A stretch of 46,809 nucleotides of DNA, from assembly GCA_016234265.1 (NCBI GenBank), contig JACRFW010000004.1, positions 1 through 46,809 of the forward strand, given 5' to 3'. This DNA is from Candidatus Magasanikiibacteriota bacterium (lineage in GTDB: Bacteria; Patescibacteriota; Patescibacteriia; Magasanikbacterales; GWA2-37-8). The position numbers were made by a program, and so were the translations under genes. Under the pieces are notes generated by a model that did no database searches, was not told where the DNA came from, and saw only the letters and a program-made list of their open reading frames with translations. Positions 1 to 39,865 of the stretch are shown one piece after another (position 1 is the first letter of the stretch; the number at the start of each line of letters is the position of its first letter).

Positions 1-2180
1 CGCGACGATTTATTGAGATAACCATACACGAACAACGCGTCCTTAAAACGCTGGAGTGGTGTCGTATGTACCGTGCCCACTCTGTGCCAAAATAAATCAT
101 GCGCGGTATAGATAGTAAAAAGGTAGGCGGTGGCGGCGTCATCATCAGACAAAATAACGCCTGGTTGCTTAATTTTTTGGAGCCAACCAATAAGAGGCTG
201 ATAGTTCTGTTCGTACAACTTACTGGCATAAATAGTCCAAAGTGACTGGTACTGGCCGACGGCAGTATTCAAAAACACCACCAAGATCAAAATATAAAAA
301 AATACGGAGCGTGCCCGCTGCCAAGGCAACAAAAACCACAGCATGTAAAAACTGACAATAATGGAAAGTGGGACAATAAAAAACCAATAATAATGACCAT
401 ATTGAACTACTCGACCCGTCAGGAGTTGTTGATTCAAAGCCACCCAACCGCCCAAAATAAACGATCCGATAATGATAGAGTTTTGATCCCGCCGCCGCTT
501 ATAAATATAGAGGGCAAATAAGAGCAGCGTGACAAACCCGATCTTGCTAAAGACTGGCTGGCGCCCATGTGTCGCCCACAGGAAATAGGAGGCCTGTTTC
601 CCAGCCGCAGTGCCAAAGTACAAGAGCATTTTGATCACGCTATATGCACCCAACGCCACGCCGACTGCAGCAACAGTAAAAACTTTTTTTGCCCGATCAA
701 TATCTCTGGTGAGAGCGTACAACACACATAAGATCCCCGTCAGCGAAAGCGCAATAGTCCACGCGTAAAAATAACTGTAAAACAGCCAGCCCAAAGCCAA
801 GCCAGCCCAAATAACATGCCGTCGCCGACTTTCCCGCAAGCTCTTAACAAGTAAATTCAGGTAGGTAAAAAAACCCAAAGAGCTGACATATGGGAATGTC
901 GGACGTCCATAAATATTAAAATCAATATAAAATAAGGTCTTGTTGTAAATGATCGAATAACCACCAATGACAAAAAGCGCCGTGGCGGCTGAAAGAAAAG
1001 TATTGCCAGAAAGTTGCTGTGCCAAAAAATATATCAACAGAATGACTATAAAGACACCAATAAAATTATAAATGTTATAGATGGTAGCGGCATTTACCCG
1101 ATCGGACAGCCCAAGCAATTTTATTGGCGCCATGAGCACATATTCATTCATCGTAAATAGATAATCCTGCCCATCCTCCTTGCCTTCGCGAAAAGTAAGA
1201 TTGCCGAGCGAATGTCCCTCAAGCACTTCTTTGCCCCGAGCGATATAATTATGTCCGTCCGAGCCAAAGTGAGGAATATTAATGCCGCGGTAATCACTAC
1301 CGGCTAGATAGGAAAAAATAATTTGAGGGAACGAAACGAGCGTCGTCAGCAACAAACCGGTAATGATGATAAACGCATGGACAGACAGACCCTGCCAAAA
1401 ATTATTCTGAGACTTAGGAACATCGACACCAACGGTTGTCGCTAATTCACGAGTATAAAGTCCAGCCGCGGCCCGCTGCATAATCTTGCCAAGGCCCACG
1501 AGTGAACGGATAGAATCGCAAAAAGGATGTACTCTGGAATTTCTGAAATCGGTCCATAAGACCGGCATTTCCTTAATACGCCACCCTCGTTTGTTGGCAG
1601 TATAGGCCAGTTCAGCTTCGGCCAAAAAATGATTATCGTATTGATAATTAATAATGTCATGTCCGGCAGCCCTGGTAAACATTTTAAACCCTAAGGCGTA
1701 ATCCGTACTTTTAAAACCGAAAACCAATCGTGCCAAGAATAAAAATACATAGCCCAGACCAATGCGCAACCAAGACTGATGCGTCAAAATCTTGGCTCCC
1801 GGGGCATTGCGGCTGCCCATGAGCACGTCAACATTTTTTTTGCTCTGCAAAGTAGTATAAAAACGCAAAATTGCCTCCTCATCAACACTACCGTCAGCGT
1901 CAGTTTCAAGAATATAATCCCCCTGCGCCTGTTTCATTCCAGTTCTCACTGCCGCGCCCCGCCCCTGGTTAGGCGTATAGGAGATGAGCACAACTCGTCC
2001 GGGAAATTGTTTGACAAATTCTTCCACGACCCGCGCGGTTCTGTCGGTAGAGCCGTCGTTCACAACAATCAATTCATACTCTTCTGAAAAATGTATATTC
2101 AAAAAATTAAGCGTGCGATCAAGCGTACTGGGCAAACGGTGTTCTTCATTATAGGCAGGAATAACAACGGAAAGCCGCAT
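1..2180 (-). CDS. GT2 polyprenyl-phosphate glycosyltransferase (DPM/DPG synthase-like) fused to a polytopic GT-C-like membrane domain; 3' end runs off the window
   Basis: Translated by hand from ATG 2180: MRLSVVIPAYNEE..VVNDGSTD..NQGRG..ETDADG..LGFKMF. The frame continues with no stop into a hydrophobic domain (YRGINI..GKEVLEGHSLGN..LNQQLLTG..YTAHDLFWH) that aligns with the 24120..25949 protein. It is absent from the ORF track because no stop lies in the window. Confidence 0.88.
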   Translation of the reverse strand, partial: MRLSVVIPAYNEEHRLPSTLDRTLNFLNIHFSEEYELIVVNDGSTDRTARVVEEFVKQFPGRVVLISYTPNQGRGAAVRTGMKQAQGDYILETDADGSVDEEAILRFYTTLQSKKNVDVLMGSRNAPGAKILTHQSWLRIGLGYVFLFLARLVFGFKSTDYALGFKMFTRAAGHDIINYQYDNHFLAEAELAYTANKRGWRIKEMPVLWTDFRNSRVHPFCDSIRSLVGLGKIMQRAAAGLYTRELATTVGVDVPKSQNNFWQGLSVHAFIIITGLLLTTLVSFPQIIFSYLAGSDYRGINIPHFGSDGHNYIARGKEVLEGHSLGNLTFREGKEDGQDYLFTMNEYVLMAPIKLLGLSDRVNAATIYNIYNFIGVFIVILLIYFLAQQLSGNTFLSAATALFVIGGYSIIYNKTLFYIDFNIYGRPTFPYVSSLGFFTYLNLLVKSLRESRRRHVIWAGLALGWLFYSYFYAWTIALSLTGILCVLYALTRDIDRAKKVFTVAAVGVALGAYSVIKMLLYFGTAAGKQASYFLWATHGRQPVFSKIGFVTLLLFALYIYKRRRDQNSIIIGSFILGGWVALNQQLLTGRVVQYGHYYWFFIVPLSIIVSFYMLWFLLPWQRARSVFFYILILVVFLNTAVGQYQSLWTIYASKLYEQNYQPLIGWLQKIKQPGVILSDDDAATAYLFTIYTAHDLFWHRVGTVHTTPLQRFKDALFVYGYLNKSS

Positions 2181-2185
2181 AGAGT

Positions 2186-2992
2186 TTAAAATAATAATTT
2201 ATCTACCCACATAGACGTCAGGCGCTTACAGAGTTCCTCGCTATTGTCGCCCGATCGTATAAATACATAGAGCTCCAGGCCGAATTCGTGAGCTTCGTGC
2301 ACGAGCTCTGGCGTCATTTTCCCGGGCTCAACAAAAAACACATAATTACAACCGAGCTCATGGGCCGCTTTGAGCCCCGCGTTCTCCCAAGTGTCACCCT
2401 CGTGATAATAGCGCAAGGCGCTCGCGGCAATCGGATTTTTTCCGACATGCTCGGCGCTGGTTAGCCAGGTGAAGCCCAACCGCAGAGTGAGGCCGGTTTC
2501 TTCCAGCGCTTTTTTGGCAGCCATTACCGCTTCGGGAGAAAAGGAGTGAATGCCCATTTGTTCAATAAAACGCGACGGTTCTTTGCCCTGAACTTTAAAG
2601 GCGCCCTCTGCCCGCATGTCGCCTATGGTGACAACTATCTGCCGCGCTGTTTGAGCGGCCTTTTCTGGCGTACTACCCTTCGCCTCAAAAAAAACTTGGA
2701 TACCGCGATCATAGCAACCGGCCACATACTCCCGAAAAAAAGGAGCCGCGCCGCCAATTTGGTCAGGGGCGCGCACCTTGAGCTTGGCAAAAATTTCGGG
2801 GGACATGTTCTCAATATCCGGATCTCTCATTTTAAAATCGGCCGGGTGCACCACCCCCAGTGTTTTTTCATCACTCAAAAGCATGACATCGGCCTCCACC
2901 CCGCCGCCATAAAGACGAAAGGCTTCAAAGGCATTCGGAAAATTTTGCCCTTCCCATTTTCCGCGATGGATAATATTTGGTTTGGTTTCCAT
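2186..2992 (-). CDS. Glycerophosphodiester phosphodiesterase (GDPD)-family protein, divergent
   Basis: IIHRG, GVEADV, VVH and FFEAK match the GDPD HRG / ExD / H / ExK pattern. The C-terminus resembles the family (AHEFGLELYVF..VDKL). Confidence 0.7.
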   Translation of the reverse strand: METKPNIIHRGKWEGQNFPNAFEAFRLYGGGVEADVMLLSDEKTLGVVHPADFKMRDPDIENMSPEIFAKLKVRAPDQIGGAAPFFREYVAGCYDRGIQVFFEAKGSTPEKAAQTARQIVVTIGDMRAEGAFKVQGKEPSRFIEQMGIHSFSPEAVMAAKKALEETGLTLRLGFTWLTSAEHVGKNPIAASALRYYHEGDTWENAGLKAAHELGCNYVFFVEPGKMTPELVHEAHEFGLELYVFIRSGDNSEELCKRLTSMWVDKLLF

Positions 2993-3992: not shown

Positions 3993-6281
3993 TTAGGACA
4001 ACGCCGCACTATTCTTAAACCAGCGATAAGACCGTTTTAAACCAACCTTAAGATCAACCTTAGCGCTATAGCCCAAACTTTTTTTGGCTTTAGTTAGATC
4101 AGGACATCGACGACGGGGTTCGTCTTGCGGATAATTATCCGGATAGGAAACTAGATTCACCGCAATTTTATTATCAAAAACAACTTCAGCTACCGTATCT
4201 GCCAGCACCTTCATATTAATTTCATCGTTATCATTACCAATATTATAGACTTCTCCATCAGCGCCAAAAAGTAACACCTTAAGAAACCCCACGATAGCGT
4301 CGGTCACATAACAAAACGTCCTGGTTTGGTTGCCTTTATCGTGCACCGTCAGTGCCTTGCCTTCCATGCCTTGGCTCAAAAAAGTGGGAATGACACGATA
4401 GTCTTTAGAGCTCATACCGGGACCATACACGTTGAAAGGGCGGACAATTTTTATTGGAGTATGGTGGACCTGGTGATATGACATGGCCAGAGTTTCTCCT
4501 AAACGCTTAGATTCATCATAACATGAGCGCGGCCCTATAGAAGACACGTTGCCTTTGTATGTTTCCGGAGTCGGGATAACATTGGGGTCCGGGTCGCCAT
4601 AAATTTCGCTTGAGCTGAAATAAAGGACACTTTTCGCCTGCTTTACTCGCGCCAATTCAAGGGTATTTTTGAGCCCAAAAATTGTGCCCTCAATTGTCTC
4701 AATAGGATATTTTTTATAATATATAGGGGAAGCCACCCCTGCGGCGTTGATGATATAATCCACGCTGCCCTCTACGGTAAAAGGGGTACAAACATTATGT
4801 TCTAAAAAGGTAATAGCTGGACTGGAAATTTCACGCAATAAATTATTCTTTTTGCCCACGATATGGTTATCAATAGATACTACCCTGCATGATTCTGGTA
4901 AAAAATACTTATTGAGCATATCAACGGTCGCTACCATATAACTGCCAATAAAACCGGAGCCACCTGTTATTACCACTGTTTTGCCAGAGAGAAGTTGCGC
5001 CTCTTTACCCAAAGATTGGATGATGGAATACAAATCCTGATCAACAATATTTTCAATGATAAGCGGGCGCGGCACGGGTATTATAAATCGCTCATGCTGA
5101 ACTAATTTCTTCATAATAGGCTCGGCAAAATTCCAGGCCAAGATCAATATATAATCCGGATGGTCAACGGCCAAATGTTCCGGTCCTACCACCGGCAAAT
5201 GAGTTCCTGGCATGAATAATCCCTGCTTCCAACTACTGTCATCAACCACATAGTCAATAGTATCCTTACCAATGCCAAAATAACTAAGAAGCGTTGTGGC
5301 TTTAGCCGGCGCTCCATAGCCGACTATTTTCTTTCCTGCGGATTTCAATTCACCGAGCAACTGAAGTAACTGTCGTTTATTCTCGCCTATTCTTTGACCA
5401 AAATGAATAAAGGTTGCTTCTTGGGAAAGACCACAGGTCTCTTCCTCGGCAAAAAACTGATCAATAGCAGCAGTGTGCGGCGGCCGTGAACCTCCGCGCT
5501 TTTGCACAAAAACACGGAGCGAACCGCCGTGAGTGTCGGTGCGCTCTATGTCGAATACTTCCATGCCCAAACGCTTGAATAAAGCGCACAAGGTGTGGAC
5601 CGTAAAATACGAGAGGTGCTCATGGTAAACTGTATCAAATAGATTTTTTTCAATCAGATCGCGCAGGTAATATGCTTCAATTACAAAAACGCCATCCGGA
5701 GCCAACAATATTTTCACGCCCTCAACAATTTCATCTAAATCATCAACATGCGGAAAAACGCTCGTCGCCGTGACGAGATGCGCCGTGCCGTGGTCTCTCA
5801 CAATTTCGCCTGCCACCGTTGGACTAAAAAAAACTGGCTTTGTTTCAATGCCATTGCTGGTAGCCATCTCTGCGATCTTGATTGCCGGATCAATACCGAG
5901 CACTCGCCTGCCACGATTTTTAAAAGGGCGCAGGAGTATACCATCATTGCTCCCAATATCCACCACCAAAGCGCCACCAGGCAAAGACAGACGACCTATC
6001 ATGGTTTCGGAAAATGTTTCAAAGTGAGAAACAAAGGCCGGTGAAGTTGAAGAGACATATACATAGTTGCGAAACAACAGTTCAGGCGAAACAACATCCG
6101 CGAGTTGCACAAAACCACAGTCGCGGCACAGTTGGAGCTCAAGCGGAAAAGACTGCTCTAGTAGCTGCAGCTGATCTGGACGTAGAAAGGCGTTGGCCGG
6201 CGGTGTTGAGCCAAGTGATAGTACGCCGTGCAGATTCTGTCCAATGCAAACGCGGCAGGTTGTTCTCTTCATTACCATCAT
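3993..6281 (-). CDS. Fusion of an NDP-sugar C-methyltransferase (Zn-binding, class I SAM) and a UDP-glucuronate-decarboxylase-like NAD-dependent epimerase/dehydratase
   Basis: N-part: CRVC/CRDC, DIGSNDG, YHEHLSYF, HGGS, GYGAPAKA, ILAWNF. C-part: ITGGSGFIG, SSSEIYG, GPRSCYDESKR, QTRTFCY, DEPRRRCPD. Single uninterrupted frame. Confidence 0.88.
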   Translation of the reverse strand: MMVMKRTTCRVCIGQNLHGVLSLGSTPPANAFLRPDQLQLLEQSFPLELQLCRDCGFVQLADVVSPELLFRNYVYVSSTSPAFVSHFETFSETMIGRLSLPGGALVVDIGSNDGILLRPFKNRGRRVLGIDPAIKIAEMATSNGIETKPVFFSPTVAGEIVRDHGTAHLVTATSVFPHVDDLDEIVEGVKILLAPDGVFVIEAYYLRDLIEKNLFDTVYHEHLSYFTVHTLCALFKRLGMEVFDIERTDTHGGSLRVFVQKRGGSRPPHTAAIDQFFAEEETCGLSQEATFIHFGQRIGENKRQLLQLLGELKSAGKKIVGYGAPAKATTLLSYFGIGKDTIDYVVDDSSWKQGLFMPGTHLPVVGPEHLAVDHPDYILILAWNFAEPIMKKLVQHERFIIPVPRPLIIENIVDQDLYSIIQSLGKEAQLLSGKTVVITGGSGFIGSYMVATVDMLNKYFLPESCRVVSIDNHIVGKKNNLLREISSPAITFLEHNVCTPFTVEGSVDYIINAAGVASPIYYKKYPIETIEGTIFGLKNTLELARVKQAKSVLYFSSSEIYGDPDPNVIPTPETYKGNVSSIGPRSCYDESKRLGETLAMSYHQVHHTPIKIVRPFNVYGPGMSSKDYRVIPTFLSQGMEGKALTVHDKGNQTRTFCYVTDAIVGFLKVLLFGADGEVYNIGNDNDEINMKVLADTVAEVVFDNKIAVNLVSYPDNYPQDEPRRRCPDLTKAKKSLGYSAKVDLKVGLKRSYRWFKNSAALS

Positions 6282-6296
6282 ACTTCTCAACTGGTC

Positions 6297-6717: not shown

Positions 6718-6746
6718 ATTATGAATGACCCTAAGCGCTTTGTCAA
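6718..6746 (-). promoter_or_regulatory. Sigma70-type promoter for the cupin / C-methyltransferase block
   Basis: TTGACA-17 nt-CATAAT on the minus strand, 34 nt upstream of ATG 6683. Confidence 0.65.
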
Positions 6747-7417
6747 GGAGACAAAAGATGTTTTGACTCTATAAAATCCACCACGCTTTCCGCCACCATT
6801 GCATGGCCAGCGGCGGTGAAGTGCCCGGTATCACGAATAAATACTTGGGTCTTTTCCGAGTTGATAGCCCTCGCAGTTCGATCGCTGAGATCCAAAATAG
6901 GAAACTTTGTTCCGATAACCTGTTGAAATATTTTATTCGGCAAAGAAGCGTCATACGTTGCCGGAAGTGTTTCAGACAGTTGTTTAGCATATTTATTATC
7001 TACTTGCCAATAATTAGGTATAATAACAACATTAAACTTCCCGCCATCACGATTTACTGTTTCTCCGAGTTTAAGGGCTAATTCGGCCGTAAAACGCATC
7101 AATTTAAGCCGATCAATATCGGCCGGATTAAAAAAGGCGCGATCATCGTCCCCTAAGGTCACCGCCTTAATAGCTACCGGATCAAATAGGCCAAGTCGCA
7201 GCCACTGTCTATATAAAAATGTCGCAGGCCAGCGTGCTATGCCAATTTGCTTAATGGAAAGTAGATAAAGATGCTCAGTGACAATAGCCAAAAGGCGCCT
7301 TATAAAACGGACTAATTCTAACTGCTGACTTTCATTATTCTGGGCAGCCGCTGTAGCATCATTCAAAGCCGCCTTCAAACTAAGCAAGCGACGGCCAGAT
7401 AAAAAATTAAGTTTCAT
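6743..7417 (-). CDS. SGNH/AlgJ-like acyltransferase/esterase C-terminal portion, apparently lacking the N-terminal GDS block
   Basis: C-terminal VVIIP..DTGHFTAAGH pattern; lies directly after an MBOAT gene; no GDS motif in the ORF. Confidence 0.55.
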   Translation of the reverse strand: MKLNFLSGRRLLSLKAALNDATAAAQNNESQQLELVRFIRRLLAIVTEHLYLLSIKQIGIARWPATFLYRQWLRLGLFDPVAIKAVTLGDDDRAFFNPADIDRLKLMRFTAELALKLGETVNRDGGKFNVVIIPNYWQVDNKYAKQLSETLPATYDASLPNKIFQQVIGTKFPILDLSDRTARAINSEKTQVFIRDTGHFTAAGHAMVAESVVDFIESKHLLSP

Positions 7418-7434
7418 AATATCAGCAGAATTTC

Positions 7435-8901
7435 TTAAAACTGAAAATAGATAAACGGACGCTCACCAAAATACCCAAAAAATATTATCCAAAGCATCAG
7501 GGCATTATAAAATGTCCAACGAACCCATGGCGCGCGCGCCGCGAGCGCTTCACCCAAGGTGCCATTTTTTATCCGAAAATGCACATACTCCATAAAAATA
7601 ATGGCAATAAATATATGCGCCAAGCTAAACGTGCTCACGCCGAGCACGCCGGACAATCTAATAAACGAACCTGCTCTCAAAAAATAATCACCAAGTCCGA
7701 CAAAAAAATGCCGGAAAATATAAACGGCATCGGCAATAGATTTGGCCCGGAAAAGTATCCAACTGATGGAAATCAAAAAGAATGTTATGATCATCTGCAA
7801 AAACGCGCGCAAACGCAGACTCTGGTCAAAACGAATAAAATTAATGATTTTCTCACGAAGAGCCTTGGTCCAAATTGAAATAACTATATAACAACCAAGA
7901 AGACCGCCCCAAATAACGTAGTTCCAGGCCGCACCATGCCACAAACCACTCAACAGGAAAACAATCATGATATTTAACGATCGACGCCATTTTGCCACTA
8001 ACTTACCGCCCAATGGGATATACACATAATCACGAAACCAAGAGGAAAGCGAAATGTTCCAGCGCCGCCAAAATTCTCCGACCGATTTAGAAAAGTATGG
8101 CCGATCAAAATTGTTCATTAGTTTAAAACCCATGACCTTCGCTGAACCTATAGCGATATCAGTATAACCTGAGAAATCGCCATAAATTTGGAAAGCAAAT
8201 AAAATGACGGCAATAATAAGTGGCCAACCATAAAATTGGGTCGGATAGTCAAACACTCGATTAACAATCGTAGCGCTATTGTCGGCAATAACAATTTTCT
8301 TAAAAAAACCCCAAAGCATAAGACTCAGCCCAGAAGACACCCGCGGCCAACTGAATTCATGTTTTTCCCTAAATTGATGAAGCAAATTCTGCGGCCTTTC
8401 AATCGGTCCCGCTACGAGCTGGGGGTAAAACATGACATATAACGCATAAATGCCAAAATGCCGCTCTGCCTTTTGATTGCCGCGATAGACTTCAATAGTG
8501 TAACTCAACGCCTGAAAAGTATGAAAAGATAATCCGATTGGTAAGATAATCTTTAGAATCGGCATAGAATAGTTCCAATGTAGTGCTTGCATGAGAACAT
8601 TCAGATTGCCGCTGGCAAAACCATAGTATTTGAAAAAAGCCAAAAAACCAATATTGGATATGATGCTGATGATCAAATAGGCTTTCCTCCTCGCCCCGCT
8701 AGAGCGATCGATCAAAATGCCAGCTATATAATCGACAATGATCGTGGTGAACAAAATAAGAATGTAAACGGGTATAAAAGCCATGTAAAAAACGCAGCTG
8801 GACAACAGCAACCAAAGCCAACGAAATCTGTGTGGCATCATGAAATAGACGGCGGTAACAACCGGAAAAAATATAAAAAAAATAAAAGAATTAAAGATCA
8901 T
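7435..8901 (-). CDS. MBOAT-family O-acyltransferase (AlgI/PatA/DltB-like)
   Basis: LPIGLSFHTFQ, PQLVAGPIER, QIYGDFSGY, FWRRWNISLSSW, SGLWHGA (catalytic His) and C-terminal FIYFQF. Confidence 0.95.
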   Translation of the reverse strand: MIFNSFIFFIFFPVVTAVYFMMPHRFRWLWLLLSSCVFYMAFIPVYILILFTTIIVDYIAGILIDRSSGARRKAYLIISIISNIGFLAFFKYYGFASGNLNVLMQALHWNYSMPILKIILPIGLSFHTFQALSYTIEVYRGNQKAERHFGIYALYVMFYPQLVAGPIERPQNLLHQFREKHEFSWPRVSSGLSLMLWGFFKKIVIADNSATIVNRVFDYPTQFYGWPLIIAVILFAFQIYGDFSGYTDIAIGSAKVMGFKLMNNFDRPYFSKSVGEFWRRWNISLSSWFRDYVYIPLGGKLVAKWRRSLNIMIVFLLSGLWHGAAWNYVIWGGLLGCYIVISIWTKALREKIINFIRFDQSLRLRAFLQMIITFFLISISWILFRAKSIADAVYIFRHFFVGLGDYFLRAGSFIRLSGVLGVSTFSLAHIFIAIIFMEYVHFRIKNGTLGEALAARAPWVRWTFYNALMLWIIFFGYFGERPFIYFQF

Positions 8902-13569: not shown

Positions 13570-14406
13570 CTACCGCCCTAGCAGGTGACCCAGCGTGTCC
13601 TCGTGCGGCCACGGGAGCGTGATCGGCGTGCCCTCCATCAGGGCCAGGTACTCCGTCCCGCCCCAGTTATTGAGGATGGGTATGAAGCACGCGTACACCA
13701 CCCGCCCCTTGATGAACTTGACGTTGATCTGGAAGTCGGGCGGCAGGCCCTGCGAACTCGTGAACTTCTCGGCGAACATCCGGATGATACGCTGGAGCAC
13801 GCCCGCCAGAGACTCGGCCGCGCTCTGGTCGAACGGACGCCCCTCGAGCGGAACGATGAAGCACTGCCCCGCCCGGTGCCCGCCGACCACTACTCGGAAC
13901 CCCTCCAGCTCGAAAAGCACGAGCAGCGACGAGGCGAAGTGACCGGCCACATCACGCTCTGGCCTCGAGAGGATGCGCTGGGCCGGCTCGAGCAGGTGGT
14001 AGTGCAGATGAGTGACGTTCTGCCCCGCCGTGGCCCCGACGTACACGTTGAGCCAGCGCTCACCAGCGATTGGAGCGAGGATGTCGCTCACGATCCGAAG
14101 AGCCACGGTGATCTTGTTCAACCCTCCCAGCGTCCGAAGATCCTCCTTCGACCAACAGGTCATCGGCATGATAAGCAGGTGGTTGTGGTACGGGGTGAAC
14201 TGGTTGGTGATCACCCGCCACCCGCCTTCTTCCTGGTAAAACCGAATCAGGCGCCCTTCCAGAGACTCTTCGTCTTCGAAGGGACACCTACCCGGGTTGA
14301 CGATGATGTCGGACTGCCAGGAGCGGTCGAGCTTGACACCGCGCCTGGTGCCGCCAGACATGGTCGGGATGCCACCGGGAAGCACTTCCAGGGAAAATTC
14401 CGACAT
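13570..14406 (-). CDS. HIT/GalT-superfamily nucleotidyl hydrolase/transferase, GC-rich gene
   Basis: GalT-like CPF and NQFTPY..HLLIMP, plus the histidine triad AGQNVTHLHYHLL. GAAGGAG SD precedes the ATG. Confidence 0.75.
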   Translation of the reverse strand: MSEFSLEVLPGGIPTMSGGTRRGVKLDRSWQSDIIVNPGRCPFEDEESLEGRLIRFYQEEGGWRVITNQFTPYHNHLLIMPMTCWSKEDLRTLGGLNKITVALRIVSDILAPIAGERWLNVYVGATAGQNVTHLHYHLLEPAQRILSRPERDVAGHFASSLLVLFELEGFRVVVGGHRAGQCFIVPLEGRPFDQSAAESLAGVLQRIIRMFAEKFTSSQGLPPDFQINVKFIKGRVVYACFIPILNNWGGTEYLALMEGTPITLPWPHEDTLGHLLGR

Positions 14407-14473
14407 GGGTTCTCTCCTTCGGCTAAGGTAGTCAGGCTGGTCTTTCCCACCTCTCTAATGGGAAGAACAAAGC

Positions 14474-14502
14474 ATCTTACTACAAAAGAACCGCCACGTC
14501 AA
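14474..14502 (-). promoter_or_regulatory. Sigma70-type promoter for the HIT/GalT gene
   Basis: TTGACG-17 nt-TAAGAT, followed by a leader hairpin at 14441..14466. Confidence 0.6.
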
Positions 14503-14543
14503 GAAGCTGTGCTAGAAGTGTCAACAGGAAGTTAAAATGTCAG

Positions 14544-20278: not shown

Positions 20279-21205
20279 TTATTCTTTCACAATTCTCTCC
20301 CGAATGATATAGGGTGTTTTGTGGTTGGTTTCAAAATACACCCGCAAAATAAGTTCCGCCAAAAAGCCCATCATGAAAAATAAAATACCGGACAAGATGA
20401 AAAATATCGTGAGAACGGGCAGAGGCGTTTGGCCAAAATTGCGTAGAGCCATTACTTTGAGATAGACTGAGATGAACGCAGCTACAATGCCGGCGGCAAA
20501 AGAAAACACGCCGATACCGCCAAAAAAGAGCAGTGGTCGACCGGTCATGGTCACCAAAAATTTAATCGTCATCAAATCAAAGAGGTCCTTGACCGCTTTC
20601 ATGAAATAGTGCTTGGAAACACCGAATTGCCGCGCGTGATGTATAACCGGAATTTCTGCTACTTTGGCTCCCCGTCCGTATAAATACGCTGGGAGAAAAA
20701 CATGCATCTCTCCGTACAAATGTATCGCCTGTACCACTCCACGACGATAGGCTTTCATTGCACAGGCCGAGTCGTGCAGTGCCAGCCCCGTCATGCGAGC
20801 GGTCAGACCATTTGCCAACCGAGACAACCAGCGGCGGCCTGTCGAGTCATTGCGCTCCGCCCGCCACCCCGATACGACATCATAGCCCTCGCGAATCTTC
20901 GCGACCAAACGCGGAATATCAGCCGGATCATTTTGCAAATCGCCATCCATGGTGATAATGATTTCCCCGGTTGCGTCATGAATACCAGCATCGAGTGCCG
21001 AGGTCTGACCAAAATCCATCGCCAAAATAATAATTTTTACTTTCGGCAAAGATTTCAAACGAGCCACGGTCTGATCGGTAGAACCATCATCCACAAATAT
21101 GACTTCAAAATCCTCGCCCATCGCGTACATGGCCGAAACAATCTTTTGATACAAAAGATCAACGTTTTCCTCTTCATTATAAACTGGAACAACAATAGAA
21201 ATCAT
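20279..21205 (-). CDS. GT2 polyprenyl-phosphate glycosyltransferase (ArnC/GtrB-like)
   Basis: VVPVYNEE, VDDGSTD, MDGDLQND and two C-terminal transmembrane segments. Confidence 0.92.
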   Translation of the reverse strand: MISIVVPVYNEEENVDLLYQKIVSAMYAMGEDFEVIFVDDGSTDQTVARLKSLPKVKIIILAMDFGQTSALDAGIHDATGEIIITMDGDLQNDPADIPRLVAKIREGYDVVSGWRAERNDSTGRRWLSRLANGLTARMTGLALHDSACAMKAYRRGVVQAIHLYGEMHVFLPAYLYGRGAKVAEIPVIHHARQFGVSKHYFMKAVKDLFDLMTIKFLVTMTGRPLLFFGGIGVFSFAAGIVAAFISVYLKVMALRNFGQTPLPVLTIFFILSGILFFMMGFLAELILRVYFETNHKTPYIIRERIVKE

Positions 21206-21276: not shown

Positions 21277-22599
21277 TTAACGACCCACACCAAGATAGCT
21301 GAAACCCGCCGCGCGCAGAGCTACTTCTTGGTCGTAGAAAAAATTTCTGGTGTCAAAAAATATATAAGGCGGCTTTAAACACAACTTGAGCTTGATAAGA
21401 TTCAATTTCTTAAATTCAGGCCAGTTGGTAATAATAACTACTGCTTGGCAGCCTTTGGCGCACTCGTAAGAGTTGGCAAAAAACTCCACGGGCAGAGCCT
21501 TTTTTACCTCCTCGGCATCAGCCATTGGATCGTGCGCGTGGATAATTGCTCCGGCGGTGAGCAATTTAGAAATTATTTCCAAAGCTAAGGCTCGGCGCAG
21601 CGTGGCTGTGCCTGGTTTATACGTCAGCCCAAAAACGGCGATCTTTTTCCCTTTTAAATTTCCTAGATAATCTGTTAGATATTTGGTTGCTAGCGATCGC
21701 CGGATCTTATTTTTCTTAAATACACCAGCGATAACCGGCAGATCAATATCCGCTTCGTGAGCTTTATTGAGAAGGATTTTTAAATCTCTGGCCAATGTGC
21801 CGCCAGAGAATCCGATGCTCGCATCTAGATAAGCCCCCGGCCCAATACGCTCATCAGAGCGCAACGCTTTGGCTACCGCCACAATATCTGCGCCATACAG
21901 CTGGCACAGATCGGCAATGTCGTACGTAAAACTAAGCGACGTTGCCAAAAAAGCGTTGAGAGCGTGCTTGCTCATTTCCGCTGACGACGGATCCATCACC
22001 AGAAAAGACGTGCGCAAAGGCGCAAAAATATCTTTTATCTTTTCTGCCGTCTCAGCTGTAGATGCCCCCACCACGATTCGTCCTGGCTTCATAAAACTTT
22101 CCACGGCCTTGCCGAGTTGTAAATTCTCCGGCACATAGGCCACTGAAAATTTTAACTCCGGCCTCGCTTCGGAAATAAAACCTACTATGGCCTGAGTGGT
22201 GCCAACAGGTAATTGACTGGAAATAACAACTAGCACGTCTTGTTTTAAAACCGGTACAGCGCGCTGTAAAAAATCCCAAATAGGGTCCAGGTGCACCATA
22301 TCCTTTTCATCCACTGGCGTATCAAACGCGACCCACACAGTATTGCACTCCTTCAGTTTATTTAAATCGGTAGTAAAATCCAACCGGTAATCGTGAATGC
22401 AATTTTTAATTTTGTCTTCCAACTGCGGCTCCATGAGCGGCGCCCGGCCTTCCTGCAAACGAGCCACCACCGCGGCGTCTTGATCCCACCCAATCACAGT
22501 GTGCCCCACGTCTGCTAAACAGCCAGCATACACACTACCCAAGTGCCATAAGCCAGCAACAGCAATTATATATTTATTTTGCACGACAAAAATGCTCAT
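21277..22599 (-). CDS. UDP-glucose/GDP-mannose dehydrogenase-family protein, atypical
   Basis: DTP, VPENL, AEMSKHALNAFLA, DERIG and GLTYKPGT. The usual GxGGxC catalytic Cys motif reads GFSGGT here. Confidence 0.88.
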   Translation of the reverse strand: MSIFVVQNKYIIAVAGLWHLGSVYAGCLADVGHTVIGWDQDAAVVARLQEGRAPLMEPQLEDKIKNCIHDYRLDFTTDLNKLKECNTVWVAFDTPVDEKDMVHLDPIWDFLQRAVPVLKQDVLVVISSQLPVGTTQAIVGFISEARPELKFSVAYVPENLQLGKAVESFMKPGRIVVGASTAETAEKIKDIFAPLRTSFLVMDPSSAEMSKHALNAFLATSLSFTYDIADLCQLYGADIVAVAKALRSDERIGPGAYLDASIGFSGGTLARDLKILLNKAHEADIDLPVIAGVFKKNKIRRSLATKYLTDYLGNLKGKKIAVFGLTYKPGTATLRRALALEIISKLLTAGAIIHAHDPMADAEEVKKALPVEFFANSYECAKGCQAVVIITNWPEFKKLNLIKLKLCLKPPYIFFDTRNFFYDQEVALRAAGFSYLGVGR

Positions 22600-22617: not shown

Positions 22618-23340
22618 TTATTTATATAAACCGCGCAATTGATTTAACTTCATATTAAACAGTTCCCACAATGAAGAAAAAATCGCCTGAAAAACTTTTA
22701 CCTTGGAATCGGCGTCATGCGCCCAGCTTACTGGTATCTGTTTAATAGGCAGGTAATGCAGAGTGCCGACATAGAGAAGTTCTGCGTCAAAACCCCAACG
22801 GTTTATCCGGGCTCGGGGGAAAATGATCGCGACCGCGGTCCTGGAAAAACACTTAAAACCACAGGTGAAATCAACTACGGACGGTACCAACAAATTTGAT
22901 AATTTTGTAAAACAATGACCGAGTAGTGTCCTCGTTTTTGATTCCCGTACGTTAATTTGCGACGCTGGCAGACGACGGCTACCAATTACAATCTGGTCGC
23001 CCGGGGCAAGCGTCTCTACCAAGAGGTTAAACTCTTCCAACGGTGTGGCTAGATCAACGTCAAAAAATACCACCCAATCCCCTTTGGATGCCAACGCCCC
23101 CTGACGCACCGCGTATCCTTTGCCTTGATTTTTTTGATAACTAATTATTTTAAAATTATATTTATTATTATACGCCGACAAAATCGCCAACGTTTGGTCG
23201 GTCGACCCATCATTCACAAAAATAATTTCTACTTTTTGATGTGTGGTAAGAAAAAATTGGCAGATCTTGTCAATGTTTTTCGGCAAACGCCTCTCTTCGT
23301 TATAGACCGGAATAACTATCGAAAAATTGATGTCGTCCAT
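22618..23340 (-). CDS. GT2 dolichyl/polyprenyl-phosphate glucosyltransferase-like
   Basis: IPVYNEE, VNDGSTD, NQGKG, DVDLAT, CGFK and WGFDAE. Confidence 0.9.
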   Translation of the reverse strand: MDDINFSIVIPVYNEERRLPKNIDKICQFFLTTHQKVEIIFVNDGSTDQTLAILSAYNNKYNFKIISYQKNQGKGYAVRQGALASKGDWVVFFDVDLATPLEEFNLLVETLAPGDQIVIGSRRLPASQINVRESKTRTLLGHCFTKLSNLLVPSVVDFTCGFKCFSRTAVAIIFPRARINRWGFDAELLYVGTLHYLPIKQIPVSWAHDADSKVKVFQAIFSSLWELFNMKLNQLRGLYK

Positions 23341-23342
23341 AC

Positions 23343-24068
23343 TCACCACATTTTCTCATTATAAACGCCGCGCCAATCATTATACAAGATACGAAAAATA
23401 TCAAGTAACACCACCACGTAATCAAACTTCTTTACCGTAGTAGTCGGATCGTTCACCCAGACAACTGGAACCTCGACGATGTGAAAACCGCGTTTATGCG
23501 CTACATAGAGTATTTCCATATCAAATCCCCACCGATCGATCGTCTGATACTCAAAGACACTCTTAGCCCGAGCAGGAAAAAGTTTAAAACCGCACTGCGT
23601 ATCTTGATAGGGCAGGCCTAAAAACAATCGGATGACACTATTGCCCAGATTTGCTGCCCGTTCTTTGAACCACGACTGGTGGCGGATGATCCGCGAATCA
23701 GCCAAGCCTCGAGAAGCGATAACGACATCATCCTCTCTCGCCGCCCACCACAAAACTTCAAATTGATCAAGCGGCGTAGAAAGATCAGCGTCCATAAACA
23801 AAATATAGTCGCCTCGCGCCTCCTCTACTCCCCGTTTTATTGAGTACCCCTTACCGCGATTGGTCTCATTGCACAAGAGTCGTATCACTTTGTTCTGCAG
23901 AGCCACCTGCTCAACAAGTGACACAGAATTATCCGTTGAACAGTCATCAACCACTAGTATTTCCGTCACCCACTGCGGCCGGTCAGCAAAATATCTCTGA
24001 ATCGCGGCTAGGGTGTTGGCGATAACGGTGGCTTCATTGAAAATGGGAATGACAACGGATAAACGCAC
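23343..24068 (-). CDS. GT2 dolichyl/polyprenyl-phosphate glucosyltransferase-like
   Basis: IPIFNE, VDDCSTD, NRGKG, DADLST, DTQCGFK and WGFDME; GTG start. Confidence 0.9.
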   Translation of the reverse strand: MRLSVVIPIFNEATVIANTLAAIQRYFADRPQWVTEILVVDDCSTDNSVSLVEQVALQNKVIRLLCNETNRGKGYSIKRGVEEARGDYILFMDADLSTPLDQFEVLWWAAREDDVVIASRGLADSRIIRHQSWFKERAANLGNSVIRLFLGLPYQDTQCGFKLFPARAKSVFEYQTIDRWGFDMEILYVAHKRGFHIVEVPVVWVNDPTTTVKKFDYVVVLLDIFRILYNDWRGVYNEKMW

Positions 24069-24119: not shown

Positions 24120-25949
24120 CTACCACACTACCTTATATAAATAAACGCCGTTTGAAACAACCAGTTCCTGTAATTTCCCTTTTAAAAAGGACAGATCCCA
24201 TGTCGGATTCTGATTCCTATCCCAAACAATGTAATTAACCTCGCTCTTCTTGAGAATATCCATAATACCCTGGGAGCTCGCAACTTTTTTATACCCATCA
24301 AAAAGACGACTAAGGCCTTCATCACGCTTCGCCATGACAACAGGATTTTGTGCCGCCAATCCAAAACTATACGCATTGGGGCTAAAACCAGACCAATAGG
24401 AGGTCAAAAAACGATATATGAACGGATATTGTCGGTCGTCTCCGTAATCTCCAGGTCCCGACTCGTAATCCGAGCGCTTGAGGCGTGCCACAAAATCATT
24501 CCGCGTTTCTTTGTCTAAATACGCGTACACATACAGGGCATCAATAATTCTCTCGATCGGAGTATTAAAAACAAGTGCCTGGCTATGCCAGAATAGATCG
24601 TGGCGAGTGTACACGATCAAGTATTTCGCAAAAAATGCCTGCGAGTCTAAAATAACTCCTGGTTTTGGATCGCGATTGAGAACATCAAAAATTGGACGAT
24701 AGTCCTGTGCATGCTGGCGCAGGTCAAACGTAGCCAGCGTACCCAAATATTGCTGCCTGGCGGTAGTAAAAAAAGCCACAACAATCAACGCGACCAGCGC
24801 GATCCAACCATATTTCTGGACAAATTTCAATTGCATACTCTGTACCAGGGACCATGCTAGATAGGAACCGACCACAATAGAGGTTGGTATAGTAAAATAC
24901 CAAAAATAATGTAACAACTGAGGGCTCTGGCCGGTTATAACCTGCTGATTTAAACAGATCCAACTGGCCAAGACAATTGCCAACAGGAGCGGCAAAGACT
25001 CGTCTTTTCTATTCTTATAGGCATAGAGCGCCAACAAAATAAGCACTAACACGGAAAGTTTGCTGACCGGGTAAGGAGTATGATTATTAGTATCATCAAT
25101 AGCAAAATACATTATTTGCTTACCCATAGTGGAGTACGGAAAAGTGACTGTCCTCACCAGGGTGTACGACCCGACAACCAAGCCGATGGCCATAACGGCC
25201 AAAACCTTTTTTACCTGTACTGTCTTCCTGAAAACTATGTACACCAACAGTAAGCTACCTGTGAGCGCCCCGGCAAACGTCCAGGTGAAAGGATAAACAT
25301 AAAATAAGGTTCCAAATAACAAACCAGACCAGTATACATTCTTCCAGCGGTCTGACCTTAGACTTCTTATCAGTACGTTCAGGTAAGCAAACAGGGTCAA
25401 GAGCCCATAGAGCGGTATGATGGGTCGGACAAACATATTAAAATCCGGCCTCTCCATCGTCACCGGATCATGATAGAGCTTAACGAGCGTGTACCCGCCA
25501 ATAGTGAACAGAGCGATCGTGATAGCCAGGAGCTTGTTGCCGCCTGACAAATACAAAATGAAAAAATATATGAGCAAAGCCAAGCCAATAATCCCGAAGA
25601 TGGCGACAACATAGTACAACTGCGTAATGTAGAAAGCCATAACATCACCGAGCCCCAACAACCGAAGCGGGCCCAGGAAAAGATACTCAATGTATACTTG
25701 ATGCGGGTCAGACGAGGCATCTTTGCCAATTTTTAAATTATCATTACCCAAAGAATGCCCCTCAAGTATTTCTCTGCCTTTACCAAGATAATACGAATAA
25801 TCTACCCAACTGCCAATATCAACTCCTCGATACGAGTTGCCGGCTAATAGAGGATACAAGAAAGACGGCGAAATAACGAAAAAACCCAGTGCTGTTGCCA
25901 GCAAAACTATAGCTTTATGCTCAATGAAAAAATTACATAGTCTTTTCAT
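24120..25949 (-). CDS. Polytopic membrane protein, putative GT-C-fold transferase; paralogue of the C-terminal domain of <1..2180
   Basis: About 11 hydrophobic segments, an acidic/aromatic first loop (VDYSYY) and a soluble C-terminal domain ending VNYIVWD..YLYKV. Confidence 0.7.
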   Translation of the reverse strand: MKRLCNFFIEHKAIVLLATALGFFVISPSFLYPLLAGNSYRGVDIGSWVDYSYYLGKGREILEGHSLGNDNLKIGKDASSDPHQVYIEYLFLGPLRLLGLGDVMAFYITQLYYVVAIFGIIGLALLIYFFILYLSGGNKLLAITIALFTIGGYTLVKLYHDPVTMERPDFNMFVRPIIPLYGLLTLFAYLNVLIRSLRSDRWKNVYWSGLLFGTLFYVYPFTWTFAGALTGSLLLVYIVFRKTVQVKKVLAVMAIGLVVGSYTLVRTVTFPYSTMGKQIMYFAIDDTNNHTPYPVSKLSVLVLILLALYAYKNRKDESLPLLLAIVLASWICLNQQVITGQSPQLLHYFWYFTIPTSIVVGSYLAWSLVQSMQLKFVQKYGWIALVALIVVAFFTTARQQYLGTLATFDLRQHAQDYRPIFDVLNRDPKPGVILDSQAFFAKYLIVYTRHDLFWHSQALVFNTPIERIIDALYVYAYLDKETRNDFVARLKRSDYESGPGDYGDDRQYPFIYRFLTSYWSGFSPNAYSFGLAAQNPVVMAKRDEGLSRLFDGYKKVASSQGIMDILKKSEVNYIVWDRNQNPTWDLSFLKGKLQELVVSNGVYLYKVVW

Positions 25950-25960
25950 AGCTTTTTGTC

Positions 25961-26695
25961 TTATACTACTTCTGTATTTTTCTGATACACCGCGAGCAAC
26001 GAAACTCCGAATGGAAAGTCGATCAACCTAAGCAATGGTAACTCAGCCTTAAAAATAGCATAAAAAACAGCATTTAACGTCGATAACCGCTCAAAGGAGT
26101 CTTTATCTTTTAATTTAAACAGCTTGATAATGAAACGCATGAAGACGATCGGTGGAAAAAGAAAAAAATTAAAGTAACTGACTTTATTTTTGGTCCACCC
26201 TGATACAAATAGAGCCTCCAGGCTCTTTTTGTCATAACGCCTCTGGTGCATAAGATATTCATCGTGCGCCGACCATAAAAAGGAAAAAGCAGGGACAAAA
26301 CAAATAAAAATGCCTCCGGGTTTGAGCACTCTTTTGATTTCTTGGGTAGCACCCTGATCGTCTTTTAAATGCTCAAAAACATCCAGGGCAATGACAAGAT
26401 CAAAATTGCCATCGCCAAACGGAAGAGAGTTTGCTTCGCCTCTATACAAATTTTTTAATCTTTGCTCTGAACAAAAACGCAGAGCTTCCTCCGATACATC
26501 CAATGAATATACTGTTCCAAACGACTCCAACAATTTACTGTTCAAACCAGTGCCACAACCGACATCAAGAATTTTCAAATTACCAGAATGAATAAAATAT
26601 CTTTTTACCAGTAGCCGTAACAATCGTGCCCGCACCCTTGTCCACCAATGTTCCTTTTCTACTTTATACAGCACGCCATAAGCTTCTACGTTCAT
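25961..26695 (-). CDS. Class I SAM-dependent methyltransferase
   Basis: HWW..R, ILDVGCGTG, LDVFEH, VPAF.FLWS.HD and HQRRY. Confidence 0.9.
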   Translation of the reverse strand: MNVEAYGVLYKVEKEHWWTRVRARLLRLLVKRYFIHSGNLKILDVGCGTGLNSKLLESFGTVYSLDVSEEALRFCSEQRLKNLYRGEANSLPFGDGNFDLVIALDVFEHLKDDQGATQEIKRVLKPGGIFICFVPAFSFLWSAHDEYLMHQRRYDKKSLEALFVSGWTKNKVSYFNFFLFPPIVFMRFIIKLFKLKDKDSFERLSTLNAVFYAIFKAELPLLRLIDFPFGVSLLAVYQKNTEVV

Positions 26696-26712
26696 ATTAC
26701 AACAAATAGCTT

Positions 26713-28209
26713 TTACCAAAATGTATAAAACAACAATTGCACAATTATACTTTGCGCGGCCAAAAGCGCGAGGAAAGCTGAAAAAAACTTCTTATCTTCT
26801 AGAACGAAAAAGGGGCTGTAAAAAAAGAGAAAAAAGGGGACAATAAAAAGCCAAATCCTTCCTACTTCGCCCTGAAATATACCAACTATTAAGAAAAATG
26901 TCAAATTAAAAAGTCCGAATTTAAACCATAGAGCGCTCTTTTGGAAACTCTCCGGCCACTGCCGTATAAACACAACGAGTAGTGGTATGCCAAAATAAAA
27001 ACCAAACTCCAGCACATTCATAAACATGTATCCAAAATAGACCAAAAGAGAAGAAAAATTACTTTCTACCAAAGCACTATTATAGCTGCGCGCTATAAAA
27101 AAATTCGTCACGGGTGAATAACCTGTCAGCAACCACAAAATAACAAAGACGGTAAGAAAAGATGCCCCGCTCAGTATAACCCTCAAAATAATTTTCCACT
27201 TATCCGCTGGCGCTGTTCTGATGAGATAAACAATAAAAGCCAAGAAACACGGCCCGAGAAGAAGAAACAAAAAATTACCTAAAACCCCCAGAGCCATAAA
27301 AACACCGGCTGCCACCGACCAGCTCATTTTTTCTTTCCAACCAAAGAAGGCCGCCACCAGGGCATACGAAACTACCGCCACAAATATTGCTTCCACGGAG
27401 GTGGCGGAAAAAAGCACCAGCGCGGGGGAAAAAACCATCATTGAGATAATAGAACGCGCCTCCTTTCCCCCTCGCCAACGCTCGGCAACATAAAAAATAG
27501 GTATAAAAGAAAGACTCGCCGTCATAATCAGCAAAACGGCCATTCCCAATAACCCAACTGAAAAAAACTGTTGCCAACCATATAAAACTAAAGGATAACC
27601 CGGCGGATGAAGCTGCACATGCACCGGCAACCGTGGTATGAGCGAAATAAAATTGCGTAAAAAATCGGGAGCATCTTTAATAAAAGGCAGGGCTCCGGTA
27701 TATTCCCAGTATGTGCGCGTCAGCGGATCAATAATACTGGAGACCCCGCCCCGTATTCCGGCGACGGCCAGGGCAAAACCGATAAATACCGTCATGGTTA
27801 CAATGAGGAACTGCCATCGTTTGAGCCGTTCAAAATAGGAACGGAAGTAAATAAACAAGAAAGCAATGGCTGACGCCAAGCCCAGCCACATAAAACTCTC
27901 AAGACGCGGAGAAGGCACAGCGTAAAAAAACCACCGGTCCGACCAATACCCTCTGATCCGGAGAGAAACTCCATATTTTAAAACCAACTCCCCGCCGAGC
28001 AACGTTGCCGTGGCGACAAAAAGCTGCTTGATCCGCTGGTCAATTTTTGCCAGATAGTTCCAGTAAACAGCAGAAAAAATGATACAAAATAAAAGAAAAC
28101 CAACCATCCCGAGCAGGATATGCGGTAATTTCTCATCCCAGGCGGAGGTATACGATTGCCCCGTAACCCGTGAAATCAGACGATAAAAAAATGGCGTAAA
28201 ATTACTCAT
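26713..28209 (-). CDS. Polytopic membrane protein, putative GT-C glycosyltransferase
   Basis: Many transmembrane segments with HPPG and GEVGRIWL loop motifs, in a glycan-cluster context. Confidence 0.65.
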   Translation of the reverse strand: MSNFTPFFYRLISRVTGQSYTSAWDEKLPHILLGMVGFLLFCIIFSAVYWNYLAKIDQRIKQLFVATATLLGGELVLKYGVSLRIRGYWSDRWFFYAVPSPRLESFMWLGLASAIAFLFIYFRSYFERLKRWQFLIVTMTVFIGFALAVAGIRGGVSSIIDPLTRTYWEYTGALPFIKDAPDFLRNFISLIPRLPVHVQLHPPGYPLVLYGWQQFFSVGLLGMAVLLIMTASLSFIPIFYVAERWRGGKEARSIISMMVFSPALVLFSATSVEAIFVAVVSYALVAAFFGWKEKMSWSVAAGVFMALGVLGNFLFLLLGPCFLAFIVYLIRTAPADKWKIILRVILSGASFLTVFVILWLLTGYSPVTNFFIARSYNSALVESNFSSLLVYFGYMFMNVLEFGFYFGIPLLVVFIRQWPESFQKSALWFKFGLFNLTFFLIVGIFQGEVGRIWLFIVPFFLFFYSPFFVLEDKKFFSAFLALLAAQSIIVQLLFYTFW

Positions 28210-34031: not shown

Positions 34032-34036
34032 AGTAT

Positions 34037-39862: not shown

Positions 39863-39865
39863 AAA

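Follow-up and report, generated by a model that had tools for sequence, protein, structure and literature searches.

What does a large family of polytopic membrane proteins without a name do, and why is one of its members fused to a sugar-activating enzyme? The question is raised by a stretch of 46,809 nucleotides from Candidatus Magasanikiibacteriota bacterium (contig JACRFW010000004.1 of assembly GCA_016234265.1; the whole stretch is termed the window). At its low end, the window carries a gene that joins a glycosyltransferase family 2 (GT2) domain to a polytopic domain, and farther inside it encodes a stand-alone 609-aa paralog of that domain. An earlier note, made from the sequence alone, had proposed that the membrane family uses lipid-phosphate-linked sugars as donors and that, in the fusion, one polypeptide both makes and consumes the donor. 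This proposal is supported by the modeled GT-C glycosyltransferase fold of the membrane family, by the fold of the GT2 partner, by repeated fusions of the two and by their gene linkage. We consider it probable that the family consists of GT-C-fold transferases that act at the outer face of the membrane with polyprenyl-monophosphate-sugar donors, and that the fused protein would both make and use the donor.

The fused gene and the folds of its two domains

The open reading frame (ORF) call and Pfam bear out the single frame of at least 726 codons described before, in which a GT2 domain runs into a polytopic domain (Table 1). Its ATG lies 5 nt past the stop of the preceding gene. Since the full-length orthologs have 848-853 aa, approximately 122 C-terminal residues of the window copy are cut off by the window edge. 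In BLASTP, residues 268-726 of the fusion aligned with residues 11-482 of the 609-aa ORF with 183 identities in 476 positions (38%, E 6e-91), and the membrane part of the fusion scored 679 bits against the hidden Markov model of the family. The paralogy is therefore real, and all three motif pairs that had been quoted for it occur in the translations. When the membrane part served as the query of a word-indexed search, 114 proteins were retrieved, and a GT2 Pfam domain is present in five of them: the window protein itself, three orthologs of 848-853 aa and one 827-aa protein at 44% identity. The orthologs (P0023, P0024 and P0025) show the same architecture on three further contigs at 76-81% identity. 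The four close fused orthologs align without gaps through both domains, and their main difference is a linker of about 15 residues. In the AlphaFold2 (AF2) model of the 848-aa ortholog P0024, linker residues 249-255 are the sole stretch with a predicted local distance difference test score (pLDDT) below 50.

Such a frame could in principle arise from separate genes for a GT2 and a membrane protein, through an overlooked stop or frameshift or through chimeric assembly. The window copy is incomplete and comes from a metagenome-type contig, the fusion was judged from assembled contigs, and a same-strand GT2 gene directly upstream is the commonest unfused arrangement of the family, all of which would fit an artefact. 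However, the fused frame is common to the four contigs, and the junction DNA (window positions 1330-1530) is colinear, without indels and at 88% identity, with locus L018 of an independent metagenome-assembled genome (MAG). Five other fused lineages were also found. As far as these assembled sequences go, the frame continues through the junction without a frameshift or stop, and we regard an artefact as very unlikely.

To model the membrane family, AF2 was supplied with an alignment (A1) of 90 stand-alone relatives chosen by hand from about 130 proteins, with fused forms and most fragments left out. The resulting model of the stand-alone 609-aa protein had a pLDDT of 93.6 and a predicted template modeling score (pTM) of 0.94. 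Foldseek retrieved 20 matches to it from the PDB at E≤1e-3, all of them GT-C glycosyltransferases, with template modeling scores (TM-scores) of 0.42-0.53. The top matches were the STT3 subunits of the yeast and human oligosaccharyltransferases (best E 1.8e-6, TM-scores 0.51/0.48), PglB, AftA (TM-scores 0.52/0.53), the C-mannosyltransferase DPY19 and AglB; matches with weaker E values included ALG9, ALG12, ArnT (TM-scores 0.46/0.51), Pmt4, Emb, AftB, AftD and PimE. Unrelated membrane proteins gave TM-scores of about 0.1. The comparison with the ArnT/PMT/AglB class that had been suggested as a check thus yielded only GT-C enzymes at E≤1e-3, and on this model the membrane domain is assigned to the GT-C fold. 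For the ESM Atlas model of the same sequence, the nearest feature cluster is automatically named 'RgtA/B/C/D-like glycosyltransferase', and the nearest Pfam-bearing clusters contain DUF6798, PMT_2 or STT3 on a minority of their members; we treat both as leads only.

Hydropathy and the model helices predict 11 transmembrane helices with the N-terminus inside and with short Lys/Arg-rich inside loops. In the stand-alone protein, they also predict that the first outside loop is long (approximately residues 40-107) and contains short helices, and that some 200 residues at the C-terminus form an outside domain. With the N-terminus inside, a cytoplasmic GT2 partner at this end is topologically consistent and geometrically natural. 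Among 224 full-length members, the conserved residues are D50 (201/224), Y54 (217/224), K76 (205/224), R175 (222/224), N334 and Q336 (217/224 each), H347 (222/224), Q415 (219/224) and D577 (210/224), and the first outside loop has further acidic residues at positions 60 (200 members) and 63 (187 members), which are E60 and E63 in the paralog. When placed by secondary structure and hydropathy, the polar residues with the strongest conservation fall in outside loops or at outer helix ends. A hallmark of GT-C catalysis is an acidic residue in the first outside loop, and D308 of the fusion, which corresponds to D50 of the paralog, is a candidate catalytic Asp. The family has motifs of its own, RGKEvLEGH, NQQxxTG and HYxWYF.

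Residues 4-171 of the fusion match Pfam Glycos_transf_2 (PF00535, E 2.5e-28), and the GT2 domain has an intact DxD motif (D94-A-D96) that is invariant across the four fused orthologs. The best PDB matches by sequence were the Pyrococcus dolichyl-phosphate mannose synthase (DPMS; 5mlz, E 3.5e-13) and then ArnC. The AF2 model of the full-length 848-aa ortholog (pLDDT 95.2, pTM 0.79) gave ArnC, GtrB and DPMS at Foldseek ranks 1-17, followed by STT3 and other GT-C enzymes for the second domain. The only NCBIfam models that span the whole fused GT2 are PpgS, the haloarchaeal dolichyl-phosphate hexose transferase and AglJ, all of them below cutoff; the best score was 66 bits against an equivalog cutoff of 500. 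NCBIfam likewise names no sugar for the GT2 domains of the other fused lineages, all of which score far below cutoff. The label 'DPG-synthase-like' given to this domain in the earlier note therefore holds for the class of polyprenyl-phosphate glycosyltransferases, as judged by Foldseek and the PDB, and not at the level of an NCBIfam equivalog. By its modeled fold, the domain appears closest to polyprenyl-phosphate sugar synthases and not to polymer-building GT2 enzymes. Its C-terminal helix (approximately residues 219-238) is basic and amphipathic (hydrophobic moment 0.63, five Lys/Arg), the character expected of a helix that would lie on the membrane surface.

Repeated fusion and gene neighborhood

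An exhaustive profile search of representatives at 50% identity returned 2,439 family members at E≤1e-3, mostly from Candidate Phyla Radiation (CPR) bacteria/Patescibacteria; 1,746 of them pass E≤1e-10 and 654 pass E≤1e-30. A word-indexed search with the family alignment had returned 21 proteins and no additions. Fusions were counted among the best 150 of the 2,439 representatives. The N-terminus of the family domain is kept in 134 of these, and seven of the 134 have an N-terminal extension longer than 100 aa. Pfam identified the extensions as GT2 in five cases (P0023, P0135, P0139, P0193 and P0243), GtrA_DPMS_TM in one (P0230) and a class I methyltransferase in one (P0160), and found no unrelated domain at this position among the seven. 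In the 632-aa protein P0230, GtrA_DPMS_TM occupies residues 23-136, N-terminal to the family domain, forming a putative flippase::GT-C fusion.

The GT2 domains of the six fused lineages (P0112 included) share at most 38% mutual identity. We reconstructed a membrane-domain tree from 74 rows, comprising 12 chosen proteins and 62 random full-length members (IQ-TREE quick search, LG+G4). The nine GT2-fused rows of this tree need six changes, at least five of which are forced by supported branches, and the placement of all fused rows in a single clade was rejected at a cost of 797 log-likelihood units (approximately unbiased test, p 4e-157). An earlier FastTree reconstruction with 124 rows also set P0112 apart from the window clade. 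In a tree of 72 GT2 domains, every fused GT2 nests among stand-alone GT2 genes located near family members in other genomes; P0135, for example, groups with the 243-aa GT2 of the window and with the gene that immediately precedes the family pair of locus L001. The separate fused clades and the nesting of the fused GT2 domains indicate that the fusion arose repeatedly from neighboring gene pairs, with different types of synthase. GT2 domains were fused to the family at least five separate times.

The unfused arrangement was assessed in 59 loci from one scan of species-representative genomes, plus the window, with ORFs called by a crude greedy caller. By their labels, the 59 loci come from CPR/Patescibacteria lineages, apart from one Woesearchaeota MAG and a few labels that were evidently assigned automatically. 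Together with the window they contain 68 family ORFs (two split genes are counted twice), of which two, in the window and in L018, are fused. A GT2 gene occupies position -1 for 15 of 65 family ORFs, on the same strand in 14 cases, and for 49 of the 68 a GT2 is either fused or at most four genes away. GT2 genes number 46 at positions -4 to -1 vs 15 at +1 to +4 (binomial p 5e-5, for family copies that are not independent of one another), and this asymmetry is a built-in control for a mere 'glycosylation island' effect. The association with GT2 that had been expected elsewhere is thus found both as recurrent fusion and as an enrichment of GT2 genes just upstream. GtrA-like ORFs are present in 13 of the 59 loci; in L024, Pfam revealed a gene row of a methyltransferase::GtrA fusion (4078-5250), a GT2 and a family member. 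A methyltransferase lies within four genes of 40 of the 68 family members, which suggests a possible methylation of the sugar, either free or in its lipid-linked form.

The stand-alone paralog of the window is directly upstream of two unfused short GT2 genes on its own strand, as the earlier note had observed. The 241-aa and 243-aa products are 31% and 34% identical, respectively, to the fused GT2 domain, and the 243-aa protein is 53% identical to the fused GT2 of P0135 and 57-63% identical to family-adjacent GT2 genes in L001, L012 and L022. We propose that the stand-alone paralog and these two genes are an unfused version of the fused two-step system. The 308-aa GT2 of the same operon-like run matched the NCBIfam ArnC model with 206.9 bits over residues 2-305, short of the cutoff of 529.

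Tandem family paralogs are frequent, with two or three copies per fetched locus (L001, L010, L016 and L022), directly adjacent in L001 and L022. The two copies of the window are 22 kb apart.

Proposed pathway, alternatives and related systems

In the pathway that we favor, the donor class, the catalytic residues, the topology and the direction of flow would be as follows. The cytoplasmic N-terminal GT2, tethered by the first transmembrane helix and the amphipathic helix, would produce the donor by joining the sugar of a nucleotide sugar to polyprenyl phosphate. A separate flipping step would then move the lipid-sugar donor to the outer leaflet, where the GT-C domain would pass the sugar to an extracytoplasmic acceptor (a glycan, a lipid or a protein). 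Transfer would depend on the acidic residues of the first outside loop (D50/E60/E63 in the paralog, D308 in the fusion), and the conserved R175, H347 and K76 may serve the phosphate. Both enzyme classes, the GT2 synthases and the GT-C enzymes, are inverting, and an α-linked product is therefore expected if the nucleotide sugar is α-linked.

Several results weigh against this assignment. At the sequence level, neither the stand-alone protein nor the membrane part of the fusion matched a Pfam or NCBIfam model at E≤0.01; the family had no PDB relative by sequence or by family profile (best profile E 0.21, to unrelated proteins); and hhalign of the family against a PMT_2 protein of the window gave a probability of 0.3. 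More broadly, the family belongs to none of the named GT-C sequence families tested with Pfam and NCBIfam (PMT_2, STT3, YfhO, GT87, DUF2298, DUF6798 and others). At the level of structure, the TM-scores to GT-C enzymes reach only about 0.5, oligosaccharyltransferases, whose donors are linked through pyrophosphate, rank first among the fold matches, and the pTM of 0.79 leaves the relative placement of the GT2 and GT-C domains unsettled. The methyltransferase found at the same position in P0160 means that N-terminal fusion is not exclusive to donor synthases. GT2 genes are common in the sampled loci overall (72 of 706 called genes), which are islands of glycosylation, and the linkage, counted at family loci only, may be partly generic. 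Finally, no GtrA-like gene was found in the 46.8-kb window, either with Pfam on the small ORFs or with jackhmmer, and the pathway as drawn there is without a flippase.

The ranking of the fold matches would also fit a family of oligosaccharyltransferases, ligases or polymerases that use polyprenyl-pyrophosphate oligosaccharides, with the GT2 as an ordinary glycan-building enzyme: STT3, PglB and AglB lead the list, the C-terminal outside domain is of the kind found in oligosaccharyltransferases, and the window encodes many cytoplasmic enzymes of the GT4 and GT2 families that could build a lipid-linked oligosaccharide. However, a WWDYG-type motif in the C-terminal domain is a defining feature of oligosaccharyltransferases, and WWDYG was found in none of the 224 members (WWD in two), nor was there a Pfam match to STT3. 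The closest matches of the fused GT2 are ArnC, GtrB and DPMS, the family domain of P0230 is fused to GtrA, a partner of monophosphate donors, and no phosphoglycosyl transferase or Wzx-type flippase was present among the window ORFs scanned. We consider this alternative unlikely.

A different possibility is that the membrane domain performs no transfer and serves as an anchor, activator or flippase for the GT2. There is a precedent in the GtrA-like transmembrane domain of the Pyrococcus DPMS, which is non-catalytic and may flip dolichyl-phosphate mannose, according to PMC12992685. The lack of GtrA in the window and the need of short GT2 enzymes without transmembrane helices for a membrane tether point the same way. 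Yet 127 of the 134 representatives that keep the N-terminus are without an extension longer than 100 aa, and 66 of the 68 genomic copies are unfused. Moreover, a domain of 600 aa with 11 transmembrane helices and a conserved outside domain is far beyond an anchor, its outside loops contain near-invariant polar residues, and it matches catalytic GT-C enzymes over its whole length. A purely auxiliary role is, in our estimation, highly improbable. We also think it improbable, if slightly less so, that the fused protein is a self-contained machine for making, flipping and transferring, in which the GT-C domain or its interface with the GT2 would also carry the polyprenyl-phosphate sugar across the membrane. 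The earlier note had raised flipping by the fused protein as a possibility, and none of the present results supports it. If true, this would explain a large glycosylation island without GtrA and would account for at least five separate synthase fusions in small-genome CPR bacteria as donor channeling.

The assignment as donor synthase and GT-C transferase invites comparison with Gtr-type glycosylation, of which CsbB/GtcA/YfhO are Gram-positive analogs. The Gtr-type system has three components, the polyprenyl-phosphate-sugar synthase GtrB, the putative flippase GtrA and a GT-C transferase, and direct evidence for polyprenyl-phosphate-sugar flippases is described as still lacking in PMC11127046. 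By analogy, the system of the window is probably the GT-C arm of Gtr-type glycosylation, fused to its donor synthase, and would work like the systems treated in PMC11127046 and PMC8035078. Shared traits are a GT2 with the GtrB/ArnC/DPMS fold, a membrane protein with the GT-C fold, the GtrA-like genes in 13 of the 59 family loci and the GtrA domain fused to the family in P0230. In contrast to Gtr-type systems, the GT-C protein here is in no named family, synthase and transferase form one polypeptide, the synthase is of a short type without transmembrane helices, no GtrA gene occurs within the 46.8 kb, and a methyltransferase is a frequent extra partner. The family shares with the solved GT-C enzymes (STT3/PglB/AglB, AftA, DPY19, ArnT and PMT) the overall fold (TM-scores 0.45-0.53, Foldseek probability 1.00), the inside N-terminus, the C-terminal outside domain and a long first outside loop that contains short helices and conserved acidic residues. 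It differs from them in having no detectable sequence similarity, 11 predicted transmembrane helices, no WWDYG and motifs of its own. The fusion is also like the type III DPMS of Pyrococcus furiosus (5mlz), which likewise combines a donor synthase with a membrane domain that belongs to the following step of the pathway (PMC12992685); in that enzyme the membrane domain is a C-terminal GtrA-like one of four helices, whereas here it is a 600-aa GT-C-fold domain.

The novelty of the GT2::GT-C architecture implied by the earlier note was overstated, as databases already contain clusters in which GT2 is fused to GT-C domains from other families. The ESM Atlas look-alikes of the 848-aa ortholog are clusters of similar length with an N-terminal GT2 and a C-terminal polytopic part (feature scores 0.91-0.96), whose membrane domains are PMT_2 (90-100% of members), PMT_2 with YkcB_C, YfhO (13%), GT87 (25%) or DUF2206 (63%). 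Further look-alikes are actinobacterial clusters of 820-845 aa automatically named 'dolichyl-phosphate beta-glucosyltransferase'. Their membrane domains come from families different from ours, and they are language-model look-alikes, not aligned homologs. In the open-access literature and bioRxiv, supplements excluded, we found no paper that characterizes a GT2::GT-C fusion or a GT-C enzyme from CPR bacteria. PMC6151902 and PMC4973528 were irrelevant to fusions of this kind.

Surrounding genes and implications

Table 1. The fused gene, its domains, and the gene run of the stand-alone paralog (positions within the 46,809-nucleotide window)
Feature	Position	Strand	Basis
Fused gene, GT2::GT-C-like membrane domain	3..2180	minus	ATG at 2180, 726 codons, no stop before window edge
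GT2 domain, putative polyprenyl-phosphate sugar synthase (residues 1-243)	1452..2180	minus	PF00535, Foldseek, NCBIfam alignments
Inter-domain linker (residues ~244-258)	1407..1451	minus	Varies among four fused orthologs
Polytopic GT-C-like domain (residues 259-726, incomplete)	3..1406	minus	BLASTP, family hidden Markov model, paralog fold
268-aa gene, no family, directly upstream of fused gene	2186..2992	minus	ORF call
GtrB/ArnC-type GT2, 308 aa, hydrophobic C-terminal part, same operon-like run as the stand-alone paralog	20279..21205	minus	NCBIfam ArnC model
Short GT2, 243 aa, next in run after the 241-aa GT2	22618..23349	minus	Pfam
Short GT2, 241 aa, no transmembrane helix, directly downstream of stand-alone paralog	23343..24068	minus	Pfam, NCBIfam
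Stand-alone paralog, 609 aa, GT-C fold	24120..25949	minus	ORF, BLASTP, AF2 and Foldseek
Class I S-adenosylmethionine-dependent methyltransferase, directly upstream of stand-alone paralog	25961..26719	minus	32% identity to P0160 N-terminal domain

The position of the 268-aa gene next to the fused gene is conserved in L018 (961-1773, 270 aa), where it follows a GFO/IDH/MocA oxidoreductase. On the other side of the family member, L018 has an ORF at 4336-5973, and similar ORFs of 532-550 aa are located directly downstream of family members in L022, L011, L015, L016, L009 and L019. Pfam showed that in L018 and L022 these consist of a UDP-glucose/GDP-mannose-dehydrogenase-like region joined to a methyltransferase domain, and an ORF of this type probably lies beyond the low end of the window.

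Other genes of the window are related to the synthesis and modification of sugars. A 765-aa fusion at 3993..6290 (minus strand) combines a C-methyltransferase (Methyltransf_13/14 and a zinc-binding domain) with a nucleoside-diphosphate-sugar epimerase/dehydratase, which points to a pathway for a branched or C-methylated deoxysugar. At 6743..8901 (minus), an MBOAT O-acyltransferase of 488 aa precedes an ORF of 224 aa whose AlgX/SGNH-like match is weak, and the two look like a glycan O-acylation pair. An asparagine-synthase-like amidotransferase occurs in the gene run of the family both in the window (29982..31838, minus) and in the Giovannonibacteria locus L001 (8791-10650); taken together with the UDP-glucose dehydrogenase at 21277..22599, it gives a hint of an amidated uronic acid. 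A 498-aa polytopic protein without a Pfam or NCBIfam family is encoded at 26713..28209 (minus), with the methyltransferase gene on one side and a GT4 gene on the other. This protein is possibly a further membrane glycosyltransferase, or a polymerase or ligase, and hhalign found no relation between it and the membrane family (probability 0.5). At 13570..14535, long ORFs of 278 aa (minus) and 316 aa (plus) overlap on opposite strands, and neither has a significant Pfam family.

A further set at 38364..40723 (minus) comprises a short-chain dehydrogenase/reductase (SDR) epimerase (344 aa), a 155-aa ORF with a weak haloacid dehalogenase (HAD)-like match and a UbiA-family prenyltransferase (285 aa). 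Adjoining these, within 31825..37289, are two PMT_2 GT-C genes (32571..34142 and 34037..35365) and two short GT2 genes. The set resembles the three-component systems for pentofuranoses based on polyprenyl-phosphoribose that are presented in PMC11127046.

What is new here is the annotation of an unnamed CPR family; this kind of system, and the GT2::GT-C architecture in databases, were already known. The annotation provides a testable function for a large family of 'hypothetical proteins' (approximately 2,400 clusters at 50% identity, E≤1e-3), mostly from CPR bacteria/Patescibacteria, which is a candidate for a new GT-C family in CAZy. It also indicates that reduced CPR genomes invest heavily in extracytoplasmic glycosylation, as the window alone has at least four genes of the GT-C type and six GT2 genes of the polyprenyl-phosphate type. 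In the repeated natural fusions of the transferase to a synthase, to GtrA and to a methyltransferase, the coupling of donor synthesis, flipping and use could be studied within single polypeptides.

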